64,000 bases of DNA. It comes from Planctomycetota bacterium (GTDB lineage Bacteria > Planctomycetota > Phycisphaerae > SM23-33). Every line of letters starts with the position of its first letter. Positions within the stretch are counted from its first letter, which is position 1. Shown here piece after piece: positions 6,706-47,608 of the stretch. Made by a program: the position numbers and the translations under genes. The notes under the pieces are model-generated. The model saw only the letters and a program-made list of their open reading frames with translations. It was not told where the DNA came from and ran no database searches. The DNA lies in the NCBI GenBank assembly GCA_024275995.1, contig JAJRYB010000044.1, forward strand, positions 13,041 to 77,040, written 5' to 3'.

Positions 6706-6921
6706 CTATTTTTTCTTCTTGGCTGTTTTCTTCTTGGCCTTTTTCTTCGCCACTTTCTTCTTGGCCGGTTTCTTCTTCGCTACTTTCTTCTTCACGACCT
6801 TCTTCTTGGCGACCTTCTTCTTGACTACTTTCTTCTTGGCCGGTTTCTTCTTGGCGACCTTCTTCTTCACGACCTTCTTTTTCTTCGCGACTTTCTTCTT
6901 AGCTGCTTTCTTCTTCGCCAT
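6706..6921 (-). CDS. Histone H1-like lysine-rich protein (71 aa, 44 Lys, pentapeptide xxKKK repeats)
   Basis: Strong RBS (gaggaggtg) before the ATG; 15-bp periodic repeats; hairpin cccgctga/tcagcggg just after the stop. Confidence 0.8.
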   Translation of the reverse strand: MAKKKAAKKKVAKKKKVVKKKVAKKKPAKKKVVKKKVAKKKVVKKKVAKKKPAKKKVAKKKAKKKTAKKKK

Positions 6922-11278: not shown

Positions 11279-11283
11279 CGTTC

Positions 11284-11331
11284 CATTTCAAATCTCAAAT
11301 CTGAAATTTCAAATCTCAAAGTTCCAATCTC
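11284..11331 (+). repeat. 7-bp tandem repeat array (AAATCTC / AAATCTG / AAATTTC / CAATCTC)
   Basis: aaatctc aaatctg aaatttc aaatctc aaagttc caatctc at 11290-11331, between ntpB and ntpD. Confidence 0.9.
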
Positions 11332-28475: not shown

Positions 28476-29119
28476 TTTTTGTCACTCCGCAGAAGCGCCC
28501 TGGACCGTCCTATGTAGACAAGCCCGCTCAGCACGGTGACGATCACCGCCAGCCAGACCAGGGCGATCTTGATTGCCGCCGCCCACGCGGAAAATCGCAG
28601 GTTCGCCAACTGGAACAGGGCGAAGCAGATCGCCAGCGACTGGACGAACATCTTGATCTTACCGACGGAGGTGGCGGGGAACTTTTCGCCCTGCGATTCG
28701 CTGTATCCGCGCACGGCTGAGATGATGAACTCGCGCGCGAGGATGACGACCACCATCCATGCCTGGACACTCGTACACATTCCGCCCGTCAGCCAATGAG
28801 GCCAGTCGGACTCGACGAACTTGCCGTCAGCCGTCATCGCGAAGTTCGAACCGGTCAGCATCACGAACGCTCCCACCACCAGCACCTTGTCCACGAACGG
28901 GTCCGCGATTCGACCGAACGCGCTGGTCAGGTGATACCGTCGGGCGATCCATCCGTCGAGCACGTCCGTGATGCCGGCGACGATATAGATCGCAAAGGCG
29001 GCGTTCAGCAACCACTGCGCGCCGGGGCTGGATTGTTCATACATCCCAAGCAGCACGAAGAACGCCCCGGCAAGGGCGATCCGTCCGACGGTGAGTTGGT
29101 TGGGCAGCTTCCAGTTCAT
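28472..29119 (-). CDS. pgsA: CDP-diacylglycerol--glycerol-3-phosphate 3-phosphatidyltransferase
   Basis: LPNQLTVGR; CDP-alcohol motif TDVLDGWIAR...G..ADPFVDK; GKIKM. Confidence 0.92.
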   Translation of the reverse strand: MNWKLPNQLTVGRIALAGAFFVLLGMYEQSSPGAQWLLNAAFAIYIVAGITDVLDGWIARRYHLTSAFGRIADPFVDKVLVVGAFVMLTGSNFAMTADGKFVESDWPHWLTGGMCTSVQAWMVVVILAREFIISAVRGYSESQGEKFPATSVGKIKMFVQSLAICFALFQLANLRFSAWAAAIKIALVWLAVIVTVLSGLVYIGRSRALLRSDKK

Positions 29120-29121
29120 TT

Positions 29122-29163
29122 CGATTGACGATTTTCAATTGACGATCGTCAATTGTCAATCAT
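29122..29163 (+). repeat. 7-bp tandem repeat array (CGATTGA / CAATTGA / CGATCGT / CAATTGT)
   Basis: cgattga cgatttt caattga cgatcgt caattgt caatcat at the rimO-pgsA junction. Confidence 0.8.
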
Positions 29164-30570
29164 TCCGGCGATCAGGTCGTAATTATCGAAACCGACGATC
29201 TTCGCGCTCACAATCGAACCGATGGGTCCTGGTTCGGCGAGATAACACACCCCGTCGATCTCCGGGGCCTGTGCGAAAGTTCGTCCGACGCATCGTCCCT
29301 CGCCGTCCGTAGCGTCGATCAGCACTTGAACGCGCTCGCCGGCGGCTGCCTTCGCGGCGTTGGCGTCGAAGACGATCTTCTGCTGGGCGAGCATCAGTCG
29401 CTCGGCTCGCCGGGCCTTTACCTCGTCGGAAACGGCGCCGTCCAGCATCGCAGCCGGCGTACCTCCCTCCGGCGAATACTCGAACGCGCCCATCGCATCG
29501 AAGCGGAATTTTTCGACGAAGTCCAGCAGTTCGGCAAATTCCCCGTCGCTTTCGCCGGGAAAGCCCACGATGAACGTCGTGCGGATTGCGATGCGGGCGA
29601 TCCGGCTTCGCATTTTATCCAGCAGCGTTTCGATTTCGCTGCGGGTCGTTTGCCGCCCCATGCGCTTGAGCACGCCGTCCGAAATGTGCTGAAGCGGAAT
29701 GTCCACGTACGGAATGAGACGCTCGCATTCGGCGATCGTGTCGATCAGTTCGTCGTCGAAGCGGCGTGGGTAGGCGTACATCAGGCGAATCCATCGCGCG
29801 CCGTCCAGCGAGTCGAGCTGCCGCAGCAGGCGGGCGAGGTTCCATCCCCCGGGCAGGTCGCGTCCGTATCCGGTGGTGTCCTGGGCGATTATGTTCAGTT
29901 CGATTGCGCCGTCGGCTATCAGTTCGCGCGCCTCGTCGAGAATGAGATCGGGGCTTTTCGACCGGAACGGTCCGCGAATGGACGGGATTGTACAGAACGT
30001 GCATTTCTGCGAGCAGCCCTCGGAGATGCGAAGGTAGGCGGTGTGCCGCGGCGTCAGGCGAAACCTTCCGGCGTCAGAATGGATTTTGAATTTGAATTTG
30101 AAATTCGAAATTTGAGATTTCAGACCGTCGGTGTCGGATTTGAAATTTGAGATTTGAGATTTGAAATTTTCGGAAATATCGTCACATCGCGTGAATCTCG
30201 CGTTTCCGGTGACGGCTGCGAGTATTTCCGAGCGGTTGTTGACCCCGACGATCGCGTCGATTCCTTCCGCCTGTTCGTAGAGCGACGTTCCATCGCGGTT
30301 GACCACGCACCCGGCTACGACGACGCGCTTTGCCGAACCGCGGCGCTTGTATTCCAGCGCCTCGGCGAGGACGTCCATCGACTCGGCGCGGGCCGCTTCC
30401 ACGAAGCCGCACGTATTGATAACGATCACATCCGCTTCGTCCATAGGCGCGCCGACAACGCAGCCGCCCTCGGCGAGCATCGCAAGCATCCGCTCGCTGT
30501 CGATAAGGTTCTTCGAACAGCCCAGCGACACCAGGGCGACGCGCAGAGATTTTTCGGGGTCGGGTTCCAT
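29149..30570 (-). CDS. rimO: Ribosomal protein S12 methylthiotransferase, with a repeat-derived insertion
   Basis: SLGCSKNLIDSE, VINTCGF, VAGC, radical-SAM CSQKCTFC, TRAM ..GRTFAQAPEIDG. Alternative start 30597. Confidence 0.93.
   Translation of the reverse strand: MEPDPEKSLRVALVSLGCSKNLIDSERMLAMLAEGGCVVGAPMDEADVIVINTCGFVEAARAESMDVLAEALEYKRRGSAKRVVVAGCVVNRDGTSLYEQAEGIDAIVGVNNRSEILAAVTGNARFTRCDDISENFKSQISNFKSDTDGLKSQISNFKFKFKIHSDAGRFRLTPRHTAYLRISEGCSQKCTFCTIPSIRGPFRSKSPDLILDEARELIADGAIELNIIAQDTTGYGRDLPGGWNLARLLRQLDSLDGARWIRLMYAYPRRFDDELIDTIAECERLIPYVDIPLQHISDGVLKRMGRQTTRSEIETLLDKMRSRIARIAIRTTFIVGFPGESDGEFAELLDFVEKFRFDAMGAFEYSPEGGTPAAMLDGAVSDEVKARRAERLMLAQQKIVFDANAAKAAAGERVQVLIDATDGEGRCVGRTFAQAPEIDGVCYLAEPGPIGSIVSAKIVGFDNYDLIAGMIDN
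30083..30177 (-). repeat. 7-bp repeat array in-frame within rimO, encoding (KSQISNF)-type peptide
   Basis: Minus strand: aaatttc aaatctc aaatctc aaatttc aaatccg ... aaatctc aaatttc gaatttc aaattc aaattc. Confidence 0.9.
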
Positions 30571-30636
30571 TTCCGAATCATAAGCGGAAAATCTCAATCG
30601 CCCAAATGCTTTTGATTATTGGTTATACTTTCCACG

Positions 30637-31629
30637 ATGATAAAGAAACTTACACCCCTGCGTATCGGCGAGGTTCGCGTGGACTTTCCCGTGGTGCTTG
30701 CGGCGTTGGCGGGGTATTCGGACCTTGCCTACCGGCTTATCTGCCGGCGCCTGGGGGCTGGGTACTGCGCCACGGAGATGATGCTCGATCGCCTGCTGCT
30801 GATCGAAGGCAAGCTACGCCGCCGGCTGGTGAAGATAACGGACGAGGACCATCCCGTGGCGGGGCAGTTGCTCGGTAACGCCCCTGCCGTCATGGCGCGG
30901 GCGGCGGTGGTGCTGTGCGAGATGGGTTTCGACGTGGTGGACCTGAACTTCGCCTGCCCGGTGCGCAAAACACTGCGCCGCCGGCGGGGGGGGTACCTTA
31001 TGTGCCGGCCGGACCTGGCGCTGGAAATAGTCCGGGCGGTCATGGCAGTTTCGAGCAGGCCCGTTACGCTCAAACTCCGCCGCTCGTTCGACGAGGCGGA
31101 CCGCGATAACGAGGCGTTCTGGGAAATCGCTTCCGGTGCGTTGGAGGCGGGGGTAGCGGGGTTGTGCGTGCACGGCCGCAGCGTGGAGGCGAAGTATACC
31201 GGCCCGGCGGACTGGAAATTCATCGCCTCCGTCAAGCGGAAGTTTCCCGATGCGACGATTATCGGTTCGGGCGACCTGTTCGCCCCGGCAGACGCGCTGC
31301 GCATGCTGGAGGAGACCGGCGTTGACGGTGTTGCCGTCGCGCGCGGTGCTATCGGGAACCCGTGGTTCTTCCGCCAGGTGCGCGATATCGCAGCCGGGCG
31401 GGAGGCGTACAAGCCAGGCCTTGCCGAGCAGAGGGAGGTCATCGCGAGTCATTTCGACCACGTATGCGAGCTTTACGGGCCGAGACGAGGACCGCGAGCG
31501 ATGCGGAAGTTCGGCATAAAGTACGCGCGCATACACCCGCACCCGCGGGAAGTCCGCAACGCCTTCGTGGACGTGAAGAACGCCGGGCAGTGGCGGGACG
31601 TGCTGGAGAAGTATTACGCCGACCGATAG
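30637..31629 (+). CDS. dusB: tRNA-dihydrouridine synthase (DusB-like)
   Basis: LAALAGYSD, DLNFACPV, PVTLKLR, VHGR, GSGD, RGAIGNPW. Confidence 0.88.
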   Translation: MIKKLTPLRIGEVRVDFPVVLAALAGYSDLAYRLICRRLGAGYCATEMMLDRLLLIEGKLRRRLVKITDEDHPVAGQLLGNAPAVMARAAVVLCEMGFDVVDLNFACPVRKTLRRRRGGYLMCRPDLALEIVRAVMAVSSRPVTLKLRRSFDEADRDNEAFWEIASGALEAGVAGLCVHGRSVEAKYTGPADWKFIASVKRKFPDATIIGSGDLFAPADALRMLEETGVDGVAVARGAIGNPWFFRQVRDIAAGREAYKPGLAEQREVIASHFDHVCELYGPRRGPRAMRKFGIKYARIHPHPREVRNAFVDVKNAGQWRDVLEKYYADR

Positions 31630-31693
31630 GATGATGGACGAAACGCCATGCCTTGCAAGGCGTGGGCATTGAAAGTACGGAAAGGAATTCACC

Positions 31694-33208
31694 ATGCGTT
31701 TAAGGAATATTTTCGCAGCCTTCACAGCCTTGTTGACAGTGATGATTCTCGCAGCCCCCTCCTCGGCGAGGGTAATCGAGAAGGTCCAATACGTAGCCGT
31801 CATGATGGACGGAAAAAAGATCGGCTACGGCAAGATGACGCGCGAGGTTGTCGGCGACAAAGTGAAGACGTCGGAGTACATGAACCTGACCATCACGCGC
31901 GGGGACGTGTCGATTCAAATGAAGATTACCGAGGCGTTCGAGGAAACGGTGGACGGGAAACCGCTGTCGTTCCGGGTGGTCCACGATATGGGCGTGATGG
32001 CGGCGACGATAGTCGGAAAGATTAACGCCGGTGGTAAGATCGACGTCGAAACGAGTGCCGGCGGGAAAGTGATAAAAAAGACCGTCACCTGGCCTGAGGG
32101 CGCCATGATGCCCGAAGCGCTTCGCGTTCTCGCAAAGCGCAACGGGCTGGTCGAAGGCACGAAGTACGCGGTGAAAGTCTTCAGCGCAGCCGACCAGAAA
32201 GCGATGGACGCCGAGATCAGCGTCGGAAAAACCGGTCCGGTGGACCTGTTCGGGCGCGTCGTGACGCTCACCCGCGTTAACGTGACAATAAAATCGTCGT
32301 CGGGTGCCATCACCGCTACGAGTTACGTCAATGCCGATCAGGACGCGCTGAAAACGGTCGTCCCGATGATGGGCATGAAGCTTGAGTTGATCGTGTGCAG
32401 CGAGCAGTTCGCCAAAAGCCCGAACCAGCCGGTGGACTTTTTTGACAAGCTTTTCATCAAGAGTCCCAAGCCGTTCAACCCTGCCGGGGCGTCGGCGATT
32501 TCCTATACGCTGGAGCCTCTTGCCGGCAAGGGCAGGAAACTCCGGATTCCCGAGACGGGCCATCAACGTGTCCACCGGAGGAAGGACGGAAATATCCAGG
32601 TAACGGTCAGCCGAGTCAAGGCGCTCGCGGGTCAGCCGTTACCGTACAAGGGTAAGGACGCCCAAGCCATTTCAGCCCTGAAACCAACCCGGTATATCCA
32701 GTCCGACGACGCTGCCGTGATCGCCCTGGCGAAACAGGTCGTCGGCGATACCAAAGATGCCGCCGAAGCGGCGAGGAAGATCGAACAGTACGTTCACAAG
32801 TACATCAACAAGAAGGATCTGAGCATAGGTTACGCCTCGGCGGCGGAAGTCGCCAAAAGCAGGCAGGGCGATTGTTCGGAGCATGCCGTTCTGACGGCGG
32901 CGCTTTGCCGGGCGGTCGGCATCCCGGCGCGGATCGTCATGGGCGTGGCCTACGTCAAACGGTTTGGCGGGGCCAAGGACATCTTCGGGCCGCACGCGTG
33001 GAACAGCGTCTATATCGGAGGCAAGTGGGTCGATCTGGACGCCACCTTCGGGCGGTTCGGTCCGGGGCACATCGCGCTGGCCGGTGGCGACGGTGGCGAT
33101 CCGGGCGATTTCTTCGGAATGATCAACACGCTGGGCTATTTCAGGATCGTACGAGTCAGCGTCGTCCGGGAAAAAGGTTCGCCGACGCCCTCGATGAAGC
33201 AGAACTGA
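31694..33208 (+). CDS. Secreted transglutaminase-like domain protein
   Basis: Signal peptide; Cys-His-Asp triad in GDCSEHA, HAWNSV, DLDAT. Confidence 0.85.
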   Translation: MRLRNIFAAFTALLTVMILAAPSSARVIEKVQYVAVMMDGKKIGYGKMTREVVGDKVKTSEYMNLTITRGDVSIQMKITEAFEETVDGKPLSFRVVHDMGVMAATIVGKINAGGKIDVETSAGGKVIKKTVTWPEGAMMPEALRVLAKRNGLVEGTKYAVKVFSAADQKAMDAEISVGKTGPVDLFGRVVTLTRVNVTIKSSSGAITATSYVNADQDALKTVVPMMGMKLELIVCSEQFAKSPNQPVDFFDKLFIKSPKPFNPAGASAISYTLEPLAGKGRKLRIPETGHQRVHRRKDGNIQVTVSRVKALAGQPLPYKGKDAQAISALKPTRYIQSDDAAVIALAKQVVGDTKDAAEAARKIEQYVHKYINKKDLSIGYASAAEVAKSRQGDCSEHAVLTAALCRAVGIPARIVMGVAYVKRFGGAKDIFGPHAWNSVYIGGKWVDLDATFGRFGPGHIALAGGDGGDPGDFFGMINTLGYFRIVRVSVVREKGSPTPSMKQN

Positions 33209-33341
33209 ACCCTCTTGACTCGTCGATATGCGCGAAGGCTTGCTGTCGGGCGGGACCTGTGGTAATCTTCGTCGATTTTGAAGCGGGTCTTTGTGCGCAC
33301 AGGGCGGCGGGTCCGCGCAGGCATGACGAAAAGAGAGCCAC

Positions 33342-36300
33342 ATGCCACGAAGGGATGACATTCACACGATCCTGATCATAGGTTCCGGCCCGATCATCAT
33401 CGGGCAGGGCTGCGAGTTCGATTATTCCGGTACGCAGGCGTGCAAGGCGCTGAGGGAAGAGGGCTACCGCGTTGTGCTGGTGAACTCCAACCCTGCTACC
33501 ATCATGACCGATCCGGAGTTTTCCGATCGTACGTACATCGAGCCGATCACGCCGGAGTGCGTCGCCAAGATCCTCCAGGCTGAATCGACCGGGCCGCATC
33601 CGATCGATGCGCTGCTTCCCACGCTTGGCGGCCAGACGGGCCTGAACACCGCCGTCGCCGTTGCCGATTCCGGCGTGCTGGATAAGTTCGGGGTGGAGAT
33701 GATCGGCGCTACGCGCGAGGTGATCCACCGGGCTGAGGATCGCACGGAATTCAAGAATATCTGCCTGTCGATAGGACTGGACGTGCCTCGCAGCGGGATT
33801 GCCCACACCATGGACGAGGCCCGGAAAATTATCCTGGACGTCGGGCTTCCCGTCTGCATACGGCCGGCCTACACGCTGGGCGGAACGGGCGGGGGGTTCG
33901 CCTTCAACCGCGACGAGTTCGAGGAAATCGTCGCGCGCGGGCTGGACTACTCACCCGTCAGCGAGGTCCTGATCGAGGAATCGGTGCTGGGCTGGAAGGA
34001 ATACGAGCTTGAGGTGATGCGCGACAAGGCGGACAACGTGGTGATAGTCTGCTCCATCGAGAACTTCGACCCGATGGGCGTGCACACGGGCGATTCGATT
34101 ACCGTCGCGCCCGCCCAGACGCTGACCGACAAGGAATACCAACTCATGCGCGACGCCGCCATCGCGATTATTCGCGCGATCGGCGTGGAGACCGGAGGCA
34201 GCAACATCCAGTTCGCCGTGGACCCGCAGACCGGGCGCATGATCGTGGTCGAGATGAATCCCCGAGTCTCACGAAGCAGCGCCCTGGCGTCCAAGGCGAC
34301 GGGTTTCCCCATCGCCAAGATAGCTGCAAAGCTCGCGGTGGGATATACGCTGGACGAAATACCCAACGACATCACGCGAGAGACGCCGGCCTGCTTCGAG
34401 CCGACAATCGATTACGTGGTGACGAAAATTCCACGCTGGACGTTCGAAAAATTCCCCGATGCCGACGAGACGCTCACCACGCAGATGAAATCGGTCGGCG
34501 AAGCGATGTCGATCGGACGGACCTTCAAGGAGAGTCTCCAGAAGGGCATCCGATCGATGGAAGTCAAGCGATACGGGCTTGGGTTGGACGGAAACGACAA
34601 GTGGCTGGTGAAGGATGCAGACTGGCCGATCGAAAAAACGAAACTGCACCGCAAGCTTTCCGTACCCTGCCAGGGACGCATCTATTACATCCGCTACGCC
34701 TTCAAGATGGGCTGGTCCGTCGAGCAGGTCTTCGAGCTGACCAAAATCGACCCCTGGTTCCTGACGCACCTGAAGGAACTGGTTGATTTCGAGACTTGCC
34801 TGGAAGAATTCAGCCGCCTTGGCGGCGTGCCGGAGGAGCTGCTCCGCAAGGCCAAGCAGCTTGGCTATTCGGACATCCAGCTTGGTCACATATGGAACGC
34901 CGGCCCCGATGACGTGCGAAAACGACGCAAGGAACTATCCATCGAGCCGGTCTACAAGCTCGTGGATACCTGTGCCGCGGAGTTCGAGGCCTATACGCCG
35001 TATTATTATTCCACTTACGAAAATCCGATCGCCCGGATCTCCGGAAGCGATTCGAAAAATCTCAAATCTCCAATCTCAAATCTCGAATCGTTTGTCGACG
35101 ACGAAATTCGAGTCAGCGACAAGAAAAAGATCGTCATCCTGGGTGGCGGCCCGAACCGGATAGGCCAGGGTATCGAGTTCGATTACTGCTGCGTGCACGC
35201 GGTCTTCGCCGCCAAGGAGCTTGGCTACGAGGCCGTCATGATCAACTCCAACCCGGAAACGGTCTCGACGGACTACGACACGTCCGACCTGCTGTTCTTC
35301 GAGCCGCTGACGCTCGAAGACGTGCTGAATATCTGCGAGAGACTCAACGGGCGACCGTTGGTTGCCAAATCTGAAATTTCCGATTCCGAATCTCGAATGG
35401 AGTCCGAAGGGCTTCTTCACGGCGTGATTGTCCAGTTTGGCGGACAGACGCCGCTGAACCTCGCACGCGGGCTGGAACAGGCGGGCGTTCCGATTATCGG
35501 CACTTCCCCGGAATCCATCGACCTGGCGGAGGATCGCAAGCGATTCGGCGAGGTGCTCGACGATCTGAAGCTCAAGTGCCCACAAGGCGGTACGGCGTTT
35601 TCCGTGGAACAGGCACGCGCCGTCGCCCAGCGGATCGGGTATCCCGTGCTGGTGAGGCCCAGTTACGTCCTGGGCGGCAGGGCGATGGAGATCGTCTCCG
35701 ACGAGCAGCAGCTCGACACGTACATGGCCCGCGCGGTGGACGCCTCGACAGTGGGGCGGGATCACCCGATACTCGTGGACAAGTTCCTTTCCGCCGCTAC
35801 GGAAGTGGACGTGGACTGCATCGCGGACTTCGGCCCGCGACCCGACGGTACGGACACTCCATCGCCCCGGGCGATCGTCTGTGGCGTAATGGAGCATATC
35901 GAGGAGGCGGGCATCCACTCCGGAGACAGCGCATGCGCGCTCCCGCCGTTTTCACTGTCGGAGGCCGTCGTCAAGGAGATTCAACGCCAGGCGAAGCTGC
36001 TGGCCGAGCGCTTGAAGGTGCGCGGGCTTATGAACGTGCAATTCGCCGTAAAAGACTCCGAGGTGTACATTCTCGAGGTCAACCCGCGAGCGTCGCGGAC
36101 CATTCCGTTCGTCTCCAAGGCCACCGGCGTTCCCTGGGCGAAACTCGCTGCGAAGGTAATGGCCGGGAAAAGCCTCGCGGAACTCGGCGTCGTCGAGGCG
36201 CCGCGACCGGCGCAGACCTCCGTCAAGGAAAGCGTTTTCCCGTTCACCAAGTTCCCCGGCGTCGACGTGATACTCGGTCCGGAGATGCGATCGACCGGCG

Positions 36301-36806
36301 AAGTGATGGGCGTCGACATGAGTTTCGCACTGGCGTTCGCCAAGGGACAGATAGCGACCGGTCTTGCCCTGCCCGTCGAGGGAACGGCGTTCCTGAGCGT
36401 TTGCGATGCGGATAAACGCCAGATCGTTCCCATCGCGCAGCGGTTGGCGGCTATGGGTTTCGAACTGTTCGCGACCACCGGCACGTATAACGTGCTTCAC
36501 GACGCGTCCATATGCGCGGTCAGGCTTCCCAAGCTTGCCGAAGGACGTCCCAACGTAGCCGACCTTATCACCAATAACGAGGTCGGTCTGATCATCAACA
36601 CCCCGACCCGACGCGGACCGACGAGCGACGAAGGAAAAATTCGTGCGATGGCAACGCTGCACCGCACGCCCATCATCACTACAATCACAGCCGCCAGTGC
36701 GGTAGTGGGCGCCATAGCGGCGCTGCGGGCCGCCGCAGGGGAAAATGTCTCTCCGCAGGACGCGTGGTCAGTCAAACCGCTCCAGGAATACTTTCCTCCC
36801 AATTGA
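33342..36806 (+). CDS. carB: Carbamoyl-phosphate synthase large subunit, with repeat-derived insertions
   Basis: [60 protein letters not shown]-terminal MGS domain. Confidence 0.97.
35057..35091 (+). repeat. 7-bp repeat array in-frame within carB (insertion 1)
   Basis: aaatctc aaatctc caatctc aaatctc gaatcgt, encoding [11 protein letters not shown]. Confidence 0.9.
35367..35401 (+). repeat. Degenerate 7-bp repeat array in-frame within carB (insertion 2)
   Basis: aaatctg aaatttc cgattcc gaatctc gaatgga, encoding [12 protein letters not shown]. Confidence 0.75.
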
Positions 36807-36834
36807 CAATCGCCGATCGCCAATCGACAATTAC
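36800..36834 (+). repeat. 7-bp tandem repeat array overlapping the carB stop
   Basis: caattga caatcgc cgatcgc caatcga caattac. Confidence 0.8.
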
Positions 36835-44382: not shown

Positions 44383-44955
44383 ATGCTCGGTAGAGTCCGG
44401 AAAACCTCGGGCCTGGACGTCGGACTTGCCCTTACCTTTGCGGGTCTGGCGTACCTTGTATGGGCGTTGGTTGCGGGCGTGACCCGCGCGCTCGTCCAGC
44501 AGGCGATCTATGTAACCGCCGATAAGTCCGAATCGCTACCGGCGGCTGCGAAATTCGTGCAGGTGCTGTTTGTCGACGGCGGGTTCGCAATCGATATGGT
44601 CGGGCTGGCGTGGCTGGTAGTCTCGATGTACCTGATCCTTCGAAGCGCGCATCAGAGGATCAGCATTTCCTGGGCGTGGATGTCGTCGGTGTTGCAGGGC
44701 TTTCTTGCTTCGCTGGGCGGTATCTGGGTGCTCTGGGCAAACTCCGCGGCGTTCGCCCAGCCGACGAGTACCATCGGGCAGAGTCCGACAACGCTCGGGC
44801 GGGTCAGCCAAATCTCGCTTCCGGTTATCCTGACCCTTGCGGTGCTGATATGGGTTACGTTCCTGGTCTGGCTGCTCGTGAGACGAACCCAATGGGCCAG
44901 GCGAGGACTGGGACCGTCGCTTTCCGATAGCCTGCGAACGCATAGCTATAAATAA
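44383..44955 (+). CDS. Hypothetical integral membrane protein (about 4 TM helices)
   Basis: Hydrophobic helices; fills the gap between flanking genes; no family recognised. Confidence 0.6.
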   Translation: MLGRVRKTSGLDVGLALTFAGLAYLVWALVAGVTRALVQQAIYVTADKSESLPAAAKFVQVLFVDGGFAIDMVGLAWLVVSMYLILRSAHQRISISWAWMSSVLQGFLASLGGIWVLWANSAAFAQPTSTIGQSPTTLGRVSQISLPVILTLAVLIWVTFLVWLLVRRTQWARRGLGPSLSDSLRTHSYK

Positions 44956-44963
44956 AAGCAGGT

Positions 44964-45012
44964 TTCAGACTTCAGGCTTCAGACTTCAGGCTTCAGACTT
45001 CAGGCTTCAGGC
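44964..45012. repeat. 7-bp tandem repeat, 7 copies (TTCAGAC / TTCAGGC)
   Basis: ttcagac ttcaggc ttcagac ttcaggc ttcagac ttcaggc ttcaggc between convergent stop codons. Confidence 0.95.
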
Positions 45013-45019
45013 ATGGGTA

Positions 45020-47608
45020 TCACACCAACCCCTTGCGTTTTCGCACGGACCATTCCACGCACAGCAGGGCGATCAGCACGATTATCAGCGGTATCGCCAG
45101 GTCCCTGGTCAGTTCCTGACGATGGGGGATCGGGACTATTTTCGGCCGCGCGGCGATCCTGATCTTTCCGATCATTTCGGAAAGGGAGGCGATAGGCGCG
45201 AACTCGCCGCCGCTGGCTTCGGATATCTGTTTCAGCACGTCGAATTTCGCCAGGACATCCATCGCTTCCAGGTCCCGCTTGAGAACTTCGAACCTGTGCT
45301 CGGCTGAGAGATTCTTTCCGTCGACGCTCGCCTCGATCCTGAGTGTGTAGACGCCCGCCTCGGTGGCCATGCGGGCCGAGAGCATCCCCTGCCGCATCAT
45401 CTTGTCCGAACTCAGGGCGAGTGGGATCGGGCTTTGGCGTTTCGTGTCCGATGGTCGGAACAGGCTGACCTTGACGGGCGTTTTCGACATGGACCGGCCT
45501 GAAGCGTCTTCCACCCCGGCCTCGATCCGGATCGACTCGGCGCCGGTCACGAGACGCCGATGATCGTAGCTGGTTCTGTCCGTGACGATCCAGACGTTTC
45601 CCTTCGGGGCTGTAAGGTACAGGCCCACCTGTCGCAAGAAGCGCCTCTGCGCCTCGGCGGTGTCCTTCTGCGAAAGTACCCACCGCCAGGTCGTGTCGAA
45701 GGCGATCGCCAGCGTCCGTCCCTTTCCATATCGTTGGGCGACGATCAGCGGCTTGCGGTCGGACGTCTCGGCGAGCACCGTGGCGGCGGGTTTTACCCCC
45801 GCAAGAAGGTTGCAGCCGGAAAGCTTTCGCAGAGATGCCCACGTCTCGGCGTTCTTGCCGTTTACGGCGATGTTCATGATCTCATTCGCCAGGCCGTCAC
45901 GAGTGGGAATCACGCGGATCATCTCGTCCCTTTGCCCTTTCGAGGCGCCAAGGTCCACGGGCATCATCTTTGCGATGGGGGTCTTGTCCCATCCGCCGCG
46001 CCCGAAACTATTCCGCCCTCCGATCATGCAGAAGCCCTTGCCGTACTCGCCCACGAGCTTTCGGACGATTTCGAGCTGCTCGTTTGTGAACTGCGACGCG
46101 GAAACGTCTCCGAAGATCACCGCGTGGTACGTCATCCAGTCGGCCAGCTTGTCGCCGATGGGCGGTGGACTGTCCACCCGGAGCGGCTGGAGCAGAACCC
46201 TCCGATCGAGACGGAACCTCCGCCCCCCGGCAAAGGCGCGGGCGATGTACTTGCTCTCGAAGCGGAACTTGCCCTCCACGTACAGTATCCGCATGTCGCG
46301 GTCCACCACGCGAACCAGCTTGCCTTCGCTGGGCTTGCCCGCGAGGTCGCGAGGTTTTTTCCCGACGATTTCCGCCGAAACGCGCAGGCGGTGATAGCCC
46401 GGTAAAAGCGGAACGTGCACGAACCGCACCGTCCGGGAAACCTGCCGATCGCGGATTTCAATTTCCTTTTTGCCGATGACCTGCTCGCCGAAGCGGCATA
46501 TAACCTTGACGGCGCGTATCCCCGGCGTGTCAAGCCCGATCGCCTCGATGGTGGCGGTGATCGGAAGCTTGTTGAACGCCTGGACTTCGTCCTCCGCGCC
46601 CAGGTTCTTCACCGTCAGCGTTCGTGTCGATCCGGTAACGGTCTGCGAACCCACGCCGATCGTGTAGATCCCGATACCCTGCGAACCCTTGATTTCCGCC
46701 AGGCGCTCCGGCGTGAAAATGTCCGACGTGTTGTTGCAACCATCGGAAATCAGCAGGATCGCCCCGACGTCCCTGGCATTCGCCGTGTGCAGATCGGTCC
46801 GGCGCGCGATGACGTCGCCGATGGCTGTGACCTGTCCGCTCGCTGTGAGCGCGGGGAAAGGCGCCTCGGGATCCTTACCGGTCAGTTCGGCGCTTCGGAT
46901 CACCTCGCCGTCGAAGGTGAACACGTCGATATCGTTCTGCCGGATGAGCTGTTCGATCTGGCGTCGATTATCGTTCAGCGCGTCGCGAACGGAACTGACG
47001 CGGCTTACGGGCTCTTCTCCCTCGCGCAGTTTCTTGTCCGTGTAGACTGCCGGCATGTCGCGTCTGTTCATCGAGGCGGAATCGTCCACGGCTATCAACA
47101 GCCAGCGGCGAACCTTCTCGTGAGTTACCCGCTCGATGGCGGGACGGACGGACCACGCCGCCAGGAGAAGCAGAACGATAATCCGCAAAGTCAGCAGAAG
47201 CGCCTTGAGAGGCCGTCGGAGGGGGCTGGTCGTACGCCGGTACGCGCGGAACACCCACGCCAGCGCGCAGGTCATAATCGCGAGAATAGCGCCGCCGTCG
47301 GGCAGGAAGAATACCAGGCACGCGGCGAAATGGATGAGCGTTCCCCACAGCCCGGCCCGCACCATCGCACGCGTGCGTTCGGAAGTTCCAGCCATCGCAC
47401 CGTAAATCAACGCGATAACCGCACCCGCCATGCCCGTCAGCAGCGCCACCAGCGTAAGGGAGATGGCGAAAGACGGCCTGCGATTATTCCACACCCAGTG
47501 CAGAAGCGAGACGACTTCCCAAAGCAGCGCCAGGGACGCCGCGGACCAAAGCAGCCACTTCAATTGGCCGGGCGGGTCAAACAGAAGCGTCATGCCGAGA
47601 AAGTTCAC
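45020..47608 (-). CDS. Membrane-anchored VWA + GATase1-like domain protein
   Basis: N-terminal TMs; DDSASM...T.IGD...LLISDG (MIDAS); RILYVEG..RFE, VIFGDV, MIGGRNSF, DTTWRW; C-terminal TM. Confidence 0.8.
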   Translation of the reverse strand: MNFLGMTLLFDPPGQLKWLLWSAASLALLWEVVSLLHWVWNNRRPSFAISLTLVALLTGMAGAVIALIYGAMAGTSERTRAMVRAGLWGTLIHFAACLVFFLPDGGAILAIMTCALAWVFRAYRRTTSPLRRPLKALLLTLRIIVLLLLAAWSVRPAIERVTHEKVRRWLLIAVDDSASMNRRDMPAVYTDKKLREGEEPVSRVSSVRDALNDNRRQIEQLIRQNDIDVFTFDGEVIRSAELTGKDPEAPFPALTASGQVTAIGDVIARRTDLHTANARDVGAILLISDGCNNTSDIFTPERLAEIKGSQGIGIYTIGVGSQTVTGSTRTLTVKNLGAEDEVQAFNKLPITATIEAIGLDTPGIRAVKVICRFGEQVIGKKEIEIRDRQVSRTVRFVHVPLLPGYHRLRVSAEIVGKKPRDLAGKPSEGKLVRVVDRDMRILYVEGKFRFESKYIARAFAGGRRFRLDRRVLLQPLRVDSPPPIGDKLADWMTYHAVIFGDVSASQFTNEQLEIVRKLVGEYGKGFCMIGGRNSFGRGGWDKTPIAKMMPVDLGASKGQRDEMIRVIPTRDGLANEIMNIAVNGKNAETWASLRKLSGCNLLAGVKPAATVLAETSDRKPLIVAQRYGKGRTLAIAFDTTWRWVLSQKDTAEAQRRFLRQVGLYLTAPKGNVWIVTDRTSYDHRRLVTGAESIRIEAGVEDASGRSMSKTPVKVSLFRPSDTKRQSPIPLALSSDKMMRQGMLSARMATEAGVYTLRIEASVDGKNLSAEHRFEVLKRDLEAMDVLAKFDVLKQISEASGGEFAPIASLSEMIGKIRIAARPKIVPIPHRQELTRDLAIPLIIVLIALLCVEWSVRKRKGLV

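Follow-up and report, generated by a model that had tools for sequence, protein, structure and literature searches.

Tandem repeats of 7-nt units have been described from several bacterial lineages, and some of them are both oriented with respect to genes and translated. According to the passages of MacGregor (2015; PMC4679880) on which we draw, TAACTGA heptamers occur in marine Beggiatoaceae and in some Cyanobacteria and Bacteroidetes. Stops occur in all three frames of their forward strand, which is found mainly immediately before start codons or overlapping gene ends; the reverse strand is translated in open reading frames (ORFs) as the 7-residue repeat LSVISYQ, at termini and in surface loops. 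The sets are interrupted by related 7-mers, and the same passages take the patchy distribution across phyla to suggest transfer. Here we examined a comparable repeat, with the unit pattern T[CG]A[AG]AT[CT] (TSARATY), that is translated in frame within rimO, the gene for the 30S ribosomal protein S12 methylthiotransferase, in the draft genome of a Planctomycetota bacterium (GCA_024275995.1; 2.64 Mb, 134 contigs; G000 in our labelling). The rimO gene lies in a stretch of 64,000 nucleotides of contig JAJRYB010000044.1, which was analysed as a whole and is referred to below as the window. We take the RimO insert to be a translated passenger of a dispersed TSARATY family whose arrays trace to the arms of a cassette built around a four-helix-bundle (4HB) gene, and we put the probability of this reading at roughly 0.7.

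The repeat examined here resembles the TAACTGA family, as presented in those passages, in having tandem 7-nt units at many loci, a stop-bearing strand as sense near starts and translation of the opposite strand; five of the seven bases of TAACTGA agree with AATCTGA, a variant found here. The present unit is a different one, however, namely RATYTGA, or TCARATY when read from the opposite strand. The hosts are Planctomycetota and other phyla, and inserts lie in mid-enzyme, in RimO, CarB, alanyl-tRNA synthetase (AlaRS) and valyl-tRNA synthetase (ValRS). No associated gene is named in the passages of MacGregor (2015; PMC4679880), whereas here there is a 4HB gene. Heptanucleotide long simple sequence repeats (LSSR), as Mrazek, Guo and Shah (2007) are related in parts of PMC4679880 and PMC4692102, are likewise over-represented tandem heptamers, mostly intergenic, with lineage-specific units and a patchy distribution; these accounts describe them as products of slippage with no partner gene, and units that are not a multiple of three as rare in coding DNA. 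With its head-to-tail 7-nt units beyond chance and its many dispersed, mostly intergenic loci, the TSARATY family belongs with the LSSR and with the short tandemly repeated repetitive (STRR) sequences of cyanobacteria. The latter, the subject of work by Mazel et al. in 1990, are said to be tandem heptamers that are mostly intergenic, lineage-specific and patchy, with no partner gene. Since oriented, translated heptamer repeats (TAACTGA, LSSR, STRR) are already published, the class is not new, and the suggestion in the original prediction of an undescribed system has to be given up. The heptamers GGGAATC and GGGGAYT, described by Rehm et al. (2015; PMC4692102) from Xanthomonas and Nostoc, form intergenic arrays and share with the present family rules of strand and distance to ORFs, a location mostly between co-directional genes, about 10% intragenic copies and a preference for about four units, but they are G-rich and form quadruplexes, which the AT-rich unit here cannot. 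Literature searches with exact DNA strings and peptides (TCAAATCTCAAATC, KSQISN and others) returned no description of the repeat, nor did we find anything on heptanucleotide repeats in Planctomycetes or on the TSARATY unit or its hosts. We could not find a published description of TSARATY as the arm repeat of a specific 4HB gene lineage.

Two further systems pair a repeat with a gene. In the intervening sequence (IVS) of the 23S rRNA of Coxiella and Leptospira, a PF05635 ORF encoding S23p lies between terminal inverted repeats (Warrier et al. 2016; PMC4990558); the stem (28 bp in Coxiella) is cut by RNase III, and the element is seen as selfish and horizontally acquired. S23p is a pentameric 4HB ring related to Avd, the accessory protein of diversity-generating retroelements (PMC10053308, PMC4990558). 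The PF05635 cassettes described below share the layout of an ORF between inverted arms, but they lie between or inside protein-coding genes rather than in rRNA, and their arms are tandem 7-8-nt units. The RimO block differs in having neither an ORF nor a stem, but shares its unit with the arms of one such cassette. We know of no enzymatic activity of 4HB proteins. In the repetitive extragenic palindromic (REP) sequences and REPINs with their RAYT gene (Bertels and Rainey 2011; PMC3116915), a single gene lineage is likewise accompanied by numerous short, non-coding copies of the repeat that flanks it; the partner gene here is not transposase-like, and the orphan copies are tandem arrays of variable length. 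At the RimO block we found no defined ends, fixed length or target-site duplication of the kind expected of a miniature inverted-repeat transposable element or a REP/REPIN, and no search was made for a RAYT gene.

The rimO gene (29149..30597, minus strand) is intact by the ORF list, TIGR01125, Pfam and alignment with the Thermotoga maritima RimO structure 4JC0. The ORF has no stop or frameshift and scores 446 bits against TIGR01125 (cut-off 357), the domains PF00919 (UPF0004), PF04055 (Radical_SAM) and PF18693 (TRAM_2) are precomputed for its RimO cluster, and its start is likely slightly 3' of the first TTG. Residues 143-172, ENFKSQISNFKSDTDGLKSQISNFKFKFKI, form an in-frame insert (30082..30171, minus strand) in the linker between the N-terminal methylthiotransferase and radical-SAM domains. 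It is exactly 30 codons (90 bp) long and has a G+C content of 30%, against 59% for the gene and about 60% for the window. Two heptamer arrays in the same orientation make up the block. The 5' array (30136..30171, minus strand) has the stop-free strand as sense and consists of TCAAATY units, GAAAATT TCAAATC TCAAATC TCAAATT TCAAATCC; the 3' array (30082..30122, minus strand) reads TGAAATC TCAAATT TCGAATT TCAAATT CAAATT CAAAATC, with one out-of-frame TGA unit and decay to hexamers (CAAATT). Tandem Repeats Finder (TRF) reports period 7 at 30085-30120 and at 30138-30169, with 92% matches in the 5' array. Between the arrays lies a G+C-rich spacer of 13 nt, GACACCGACGGTC (30123..30135, minus strand), which encodes a DTDG turn and faintly resembles the downstream flank TCTGACGCCGG, a likeness that we did not treat as significant. 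The peptide repeats every 7 residues (ISNxKSQ) because three heptamers make 21 bp. The original prediction had described an AT-rich 7-bp repeat translated without stop or frameshift between the two domains of RimO, and had explained the 7-residue period in the same way; all of this agrees with the sequence and with the alignment to 4JC0, the coordinates being refined from 30083-30177 to 30082-30171.

An AlphaFold model of RimO built from 120 sequences has a mean pLDDT (predicted local distance difference test) of 91.9, with 56-64 in the insert, where two short low-confidence helices (141-150 and 156-165) are predicted on either side of the spacer-encoded DTDG turn. The DNA of the block folds with -10.4 kcal/mol compared with -10.7 for shuffles (z = 0.13), so that no hairpin is indicated, the 90 bp contain no ORF of their own, and an Rfam search of window positions 28500-36000 matched no family at E <= 1. 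The palindromic elements of Rickettsia, studied by Ogata et al. in 2000, are reportedly palindromes of defined sequence, 100-150 bp long, that occur in frame in housekeeping genes and surface loops. The in-frame housekeeping insertion is shared, but the RimO block is a variable tandem array that folds no better than shuffles, and the analogy drawn with these elements in the original prediction is a weak one. At the junctions of the in-frame inserts we looked for duplication or inversion of neighbouring coding sequence and found only single matches of 9-11 nt, at chance level; one of these, TCGGAAATA, recurs inverted at the left RimO junction 53 nt upstream and is not separable from chance.

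Comparison with RimO homologues defines the empty site, as had been proposed. In the 89 homologues in which both anchor motifs were located the linker has a median of 30 aa (quartiles 30 and 34), compared with 57 aa here. The closest RimO among 19 relatives (67% identity) has 12 residues where about 42 are found here, and in the alignment with 4JC0, which places the end of the N-terminal domain at query residue 131 and the start of the radical-SAM domain at 178, 46 residues correspond to 17. The block is conserved in 0 of 119 RimO homologues. Heptamer arrays of other units do occupy the same linker elsewhere. A RimO that is 57% identical (P0013, on JGI contig L141) has a linker of 88 aa whose DNA is (ATTTCGG)n, a G+C-rich centre and (AAATCYS)n, its peptide including NPKSEIPNLESEMPNLKSGISNPKSGIPNPKS; the linker of another (P0109, Logan contig L142) contains NPKSEIQ and RQSAIHNSQSAIA, from AAATCCG and CAATCCG units. 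Arrays at this position in separate lineages thus mark the RimO linker as a permissive site that has been occupied repeatedly, and the orientation and length of the insert fit a simple selection filter.

The repeat is not confined to rimO. A 16-mer of it, allowing up to 2 mismatches, has 10 matches in the window where 0.02 are expected, and the TSARATY family has about 48 loci in the genome (48-64 in different scans). As chance controls we used a shuffled genome and the reversed unit pattern (YTARACT units), each of which gave 0 matches. The excess of the 16-mer, together with genome-wide loci that are absent from the shuffled genome, means that chance does not explain the repeat. AAATCTC is the most frequent period-7 unit of the genome, and TCARATY and TGARATY are two strands of one repeat. 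On the TCARATY strand there is no stop in any frame, and its complement RATYTGA brings a TGA every 7 nt, that is, in each frame once per 21 bp. Arrays are 21-119 bp long with fuzzy ends, and the number and sequence of their units differ between loci. Relative to the genes predicted by our own codon-usage ORF caller (2221 genes, 86% coding), only 8 of the 48 loci lie inside genes although most of the DNA is coding (p = 3e-27), and 40 lie outside. The stop-free strand is the sense strand at 7 of the 8 intragenic loci; of the arrays between co-directional genes, 19 have the TGA-bearing strand as sense and 3 the other (p = 8.6e-4). Many of these arrays touch the upstream stop or the downstream start codon. 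In the window, an intergenic array of the family (11283..11331, no strand assigned) is separated by 4 nt from the start of the minus-strand gene downstream of it, and its TGA-bearing strand is sense.

The opposite strand is translated in RimO, in CarB (twice), in AlaRS and ValRS, in the C-terminus of a glycosyltransferase and in the 4HB gene. The first CarB copy (35057..35089, plus strand) is part of a gain of 23 residues between residues 549 and 557 of E. coli CarB, where the reference structure (1BXR) has a loop of 7 residues, and the second, degenerate copy (35365..35387, plus strand) is part of a gain of 22 residues between E. coli residues 630 and 636, at a loop of 5 residues in the same structure. 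ValRS gains 45 residues at a loop of 1 residue in 1GAX and AlaRS gains 33 at a loop of 3 residues in 3HTZ, so that all of these other in-frame inserts fall at places where solved structures have loops of 1-7 residues. In the glycosyltransferase on contig C42 the C-terminal tail is an array plus a hairpin, read through. A dispersed family that enters tolerant linkers and makes new peptide, as the original prediction supposed, is therefore borne out by the roughly 48 loci and the CarB, AlaRS and ValRS copies. Several long "ORFs" that cross arrays were discarded as antisense artefacts, one of which reads through a tRNA gene.

The search for a gene consistently flanked by these arrays, suggested in the original prediction together with the idea that such a partner would lie outside the window, led to a PF05635 4HB gene on contig C121 (36417-36935; P0121), one of two PF05635 genes in the genome. 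It matches TIGR02436 with 77 bits and is of the 23S-rRNA-IVS/S23p/Avd-like kind. One TSARATY array lies 18 nt upstream of it and a second lies in frame inside it, encoding HLKSEISNLKS. In the class-level survey of 41 relatives, 16 had TSARATY arrays of at least 3 units, with counts from 1 to 148, and orthologues of P0121 with arrays were found in six other genera (G009, G011, G013, G020, G026 and G034; 48-76% identity). An array may precede the gene, occupy the same place inside it, or lie at or beyond the stop; as a rule the TGA-bearing strand is upstream and the stop-free strand downstream. An orthologue is present in 6 of 8 array-rich but only 1 of 33 array-poor relatives (Fisher p = 4e-5, kinship ignored), and the sole array-poor genome with an orthologue (G034) has its only two array matches within that gene. 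The same contrast is seen within genera: one genome with 55 matches has the gene (G020) and its congener with 0 matches has none (G025), and in a second genus a genome with 22 matches has it (G335) while two with 5 and 1 do not (G232 and G278).

At phylum level, TSARATY arrays were found in 31 of 301 Planctomycetota genomes and a P0121 orthologue in 5, all 5 of which have arrays inside or adjoining the gene; in one of the genomes with an orthologue (G089) the only arrays are at that gene. The orthologues of G335 and G248 have no internal array and an ordinary helix in its place, which indicates that the internal array is secondary. For other phyla we scanned one genome per species for arrays of at least 4 units, and found them in Planctomycetota, Acidobacteriota, Bacteroidota, Verrucomicrobiota, Kiritimatiellia, Cyanobacteria, Patescibacteria and a few others, many of them in frame within large ORFs; among the first 80 listed there were hardly any from Proteobacteria and none from Firmicutes or Actinobacteria. 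Of 50 array-bearing genomes of other phyla, 11 have an orthologue with 47-60% identity, and 10 of these 11 carry TSARATY upstream, inside or downstream of it. The orthologues come from 7 of 12 Acidobacteriota and 4 of 6 Verrucomicrobiota/Kiritimatiellia/Lentisphaerae genomes, with one from Desulfosudis (Desulfobacterota). In all, TSARATY flanks P0121 orthologues or lies within them in 6 relatives, in 4 more Planctomycetota and in 10 genomes from other phyla: the arrays co-occur with, and physically adorn, one 4HB gene lineage across phyla. The protein tree is poorly resolved; Acidobacteriota form one clade, and the planctomycete G089 groups with Verrucomicrobiota at 89/85 support. Horizontal transfer of the gene between phyla is not provable from a tree of this resolution.

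The pairing of 4HB genes with short tandem arms extends beyond the P0121 lineage. At 16 of 26 PF05635 loci with full flanks, arrays of period 7 or 8 occur on both sides within 300 bp, and at 14 of these 16 the unit on the downstream side is the reverse complement of that on the upstream side. Within 300 bp of PF05635 genes there are 3.0 arrays per kb, compared with 0.18 per kb at greater distance, and the arm unit differs from one gene lineage to another. The second 4HB gene of the source genome (contig C74) has octamer arms (YYRGTTRA), and 15 more arrays of that octamer are dispersed in the genome. Three Bacteroidota genomes have other 4HB subfamilies with TSARATY arms, and G173, in which TCAAATT arrays are abundant, carries a distantly related 4HB gene whose arms are (ATTTCAA)/(AAATTTG).

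In one planctomycete (G248, contig C6; L184, at about 1440-2080 in the locus) the 5' end of ruvC holds a cassette made up of an arm, a 4HB gene and a second arm. Some 33 bp from the start of ruvC (MKILGIDPGLR) occur twice in direct orientation, once on each side of the cassette, and the upstream copy stops in the array. Such a duplication would fit insertion of the whole cassette in one piece.

Several observations weigh against our interpretation. The P0121 orthologue was not found in the array-rich genomes G001, G114, G173 and G274, for three of which (G001, G114 and G274) we could find no 4HB gene whose arms match the arrays, nor was it found in array-bearing Bacteroidota, Cyanobacteria or candidate phyla radiation (CPR) genomes. 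At most orphan loci the arrays run in one direction and do not form paired arms, so that these loci are not simple cassette remnants, and at the RimO block neither a target-site duplication nor fixed ends nor a fixed length could be defined. No close relative of the source genome was found, the next RimO being 64-67% identical. The statistics on co-occurrence of arrays and 4HB genes ignore the kinship of the genomes, and gene positions in the source genome rest on our own caller. We also found a P0121-like gene within 8 kb of arrays at only 1 of 120 loci from many phyla, which places the link between gene and array at the level of the genome, not of the locus.

The main rival is that the arrays are ordinary slippage-born long simple sequence repeats (SSRs), which grow in place from chance seeds with no copying between loci; the flanks of 4HB genes would then be just more arrays, or the result of cassettes landing in existing ones. 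Among long SSRs, heptanucleotides are the most frequent class in many bacteria, with slippage of the polymerase as their proposed source (Mrazek 2007, as related in PMC4679880 and PMC4692102). That unit count and sequence vary by locus is as slippage would have it, as are the many other arrays of period 7-10 in the source genome, the use of other units in the RimO linkers of other lineages (AAATCCG in L141, CAATCCG in L142) and the three array-rich genomes without a matching 4HB gene. Slippage accounts less well for the recurrence of one degenerate unit at about 48 loci of a 60% G+C genome, including coding DNA that is unlikely to offer AT-rich seeds, with the reversed control pattern absent, or for arrays that track one gene lineage within genera and across six phyla. 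In addition, the arms of the cassettes are inverted, not direct, which argues against a cassette merely splitting a pre-existing array, and the genomes whose arrays occur only at the gene (G034 and G089) suggest that arrays arrive with it. The rival is weakened by this pairing of gene and repeat, and we regard it as unlikely.

A role for the block in RimO itself, either as an adaptive coiled-coil or linker module or as a phase-variation switch operated by one 7-bp unit, seems to us improbable. The heptad periodicity, with hydrophobic a and d positions in ISNLKSQ, and the two predicted helices would suit such a module; a change of one unit would shift the frame, 7 not being a multiple of 3, and heptanucleotide SSRs are reported to drive hmw phase variation in Haemophilus influenzae. 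Against these stand the lack of conservation of the block among RimO homologues noted above, the low confidence of the model, the short and imperfect arrays, and the presence of the same peptide in loops of the unrelated essential enzymes ValRS, AlaRS and CarB, where an off-switch would be lethal. Less probable still is an assembly or binning artefact in which a chimeric join or foreign AT-rich reads entered rimO. The genome is a 134-contig draft and the composition of the block is sharply unlike that of the gene, but the block is exactly 30 codons and in frame with flanks collinear with RimO, the family also occurs in frame in a further four genes, spread over three contigs, and independent assemblies (the JGI and Logan contigs) have arrays at the same RimO linker. 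The in-frame copies elsewhere and the independent assemblies make an assembly error unlikely.

Under the preferred reading, of the RimO insert as a translated passenger of a 4HB-linked family, the block would have survived in RimO for three reasons: it lies in an interdomain linker of variable length, its sense strand is the stop-free TCAAATY strand where RATYTGA would bring TGA, and its length is divisible by three. Selection would confine the family more generally, leaving few intragenic copies in readable orientation and the remainder in intergenic gaps. The scattered arrays, the RimO block among them, are probably solo copies or derivatives of the arms of 4HB cassettes, and as orphans they would then lengthen and shorten by slippage. 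A broader and more speculative proposal, which we advance tentatively and think doubtful as it stands, is that heptamer arrays are non-autonomous "solo arms" of cross-phylum cassettes of 4HB proteins (S23p/Avd-like pentameric rings), each lineage of which would recognise its own 7-8-nt arm repeat and, directly or via a host polymerase or reverse transcriptase, prompt new arm copies, including copies in coding DNA. If this were true, the PF05635 family would gain a function, and the STRR/LSSR heptamer repeats and the translated "heptad" loops in housekeeping proteins of many phyla would have a common origin.

For RimO the consequence is probably small, the loop being a tolerated passenger. In a G+C-rich bacterium, short AT-rich repeats can extend essential enzymes (RimO, CarB, AlaRS, ValRS) by 20-45 residues, and such translated inserts matter for annotation, for alignment quality and for the origin of new protein loops. 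The pairing of gene and repeat makes both the origin of heptamer repeats and the function of S23p-type 4HB proteins testable.

Some further arrays touch the subjects above. Two different Patescibacteria (L090 and L103, from CPR genomes) have leucyl-tRNA-synthetase-like ORFs with a four-unit array at an identical position, the peptide being …APEH(K/E)(Q/L)(I/V)-SN[FL]K[FS]QISN-W…; either the two share an old insert, or the position is a second site of recurrent insertion. Two Planctomycetota genomes of one genus (G077 and G334) have 318 and 184 matches to the reversed pattern YTARACT and no TSARATY, and hold a different, very abundant heptamer family. Within or against TSARATY arrays of the source genome we noted G+C-rich mini-hairpins, for example ACCTGCCTGCCGGCAGGCAGGT and GCCTGCCCTCCATAGCCCGCAGGGCGACGGAGGG, on contigs C1, C6, C42, C48, C51, C86, C94, C121 and C122. 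They are similar to the small dispersed repeats that, in work by Elhai et al. from 2008, are reportedly nested in heptamer arrays of Nostoc.

Other repeat families are also present in the window and genome. A second, different heptamer array with ATTGACA, ATCGTCA and ATTGAAA units (29119..29160, minus strand; identified from TRF, the minus-strand read and the gene calls) supplies the last four codons of rimO (MIDN) and its TGA stop, and extends without interruption to the start codon (ATG) of the CDP-alcohol phosphatidyltransferase gene that follows. With the insert, RimO therefore carries two unrelated heptamer families. An array of the ATTGACA/ATCGCCA type at 36799-36831 similarly spans the carB stop (…PPN-TGA) and the 31-nt gap to the next gene, so that both repeat-bearing genes of the window end within such an array. 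All five GxxExxY / PDDEXK_3 (PF13366) genes of the source genome (C44:21516, C61:32697, C31:33396, C81:27002 and C31:10976) have inverted arrays of three 9-nt units, for example AACGCAGAG and CTCTGCGTT, which indicates that this nonamer family also has a gene partner. The PF13366 genes were considered as partners of TSARATY and rejected, the five copies being flanked by CAGAG-rich nonamer arrays and not by TSARATY. The entire gap between the convergent genes 44383-44955 (plus strand) and 45020-47608 (minus strand) is made up of about 7.7 units of CAGGCTT/CAGACTT (44959-45012), with 97% regularity at period 14. Finally, an ORF of 71 codons at 6706-6921 (minus strand) consists almost entirely of AAG and AAA lysine codons with a period of 15/45 nt, which TRF reports at 6712-6920.

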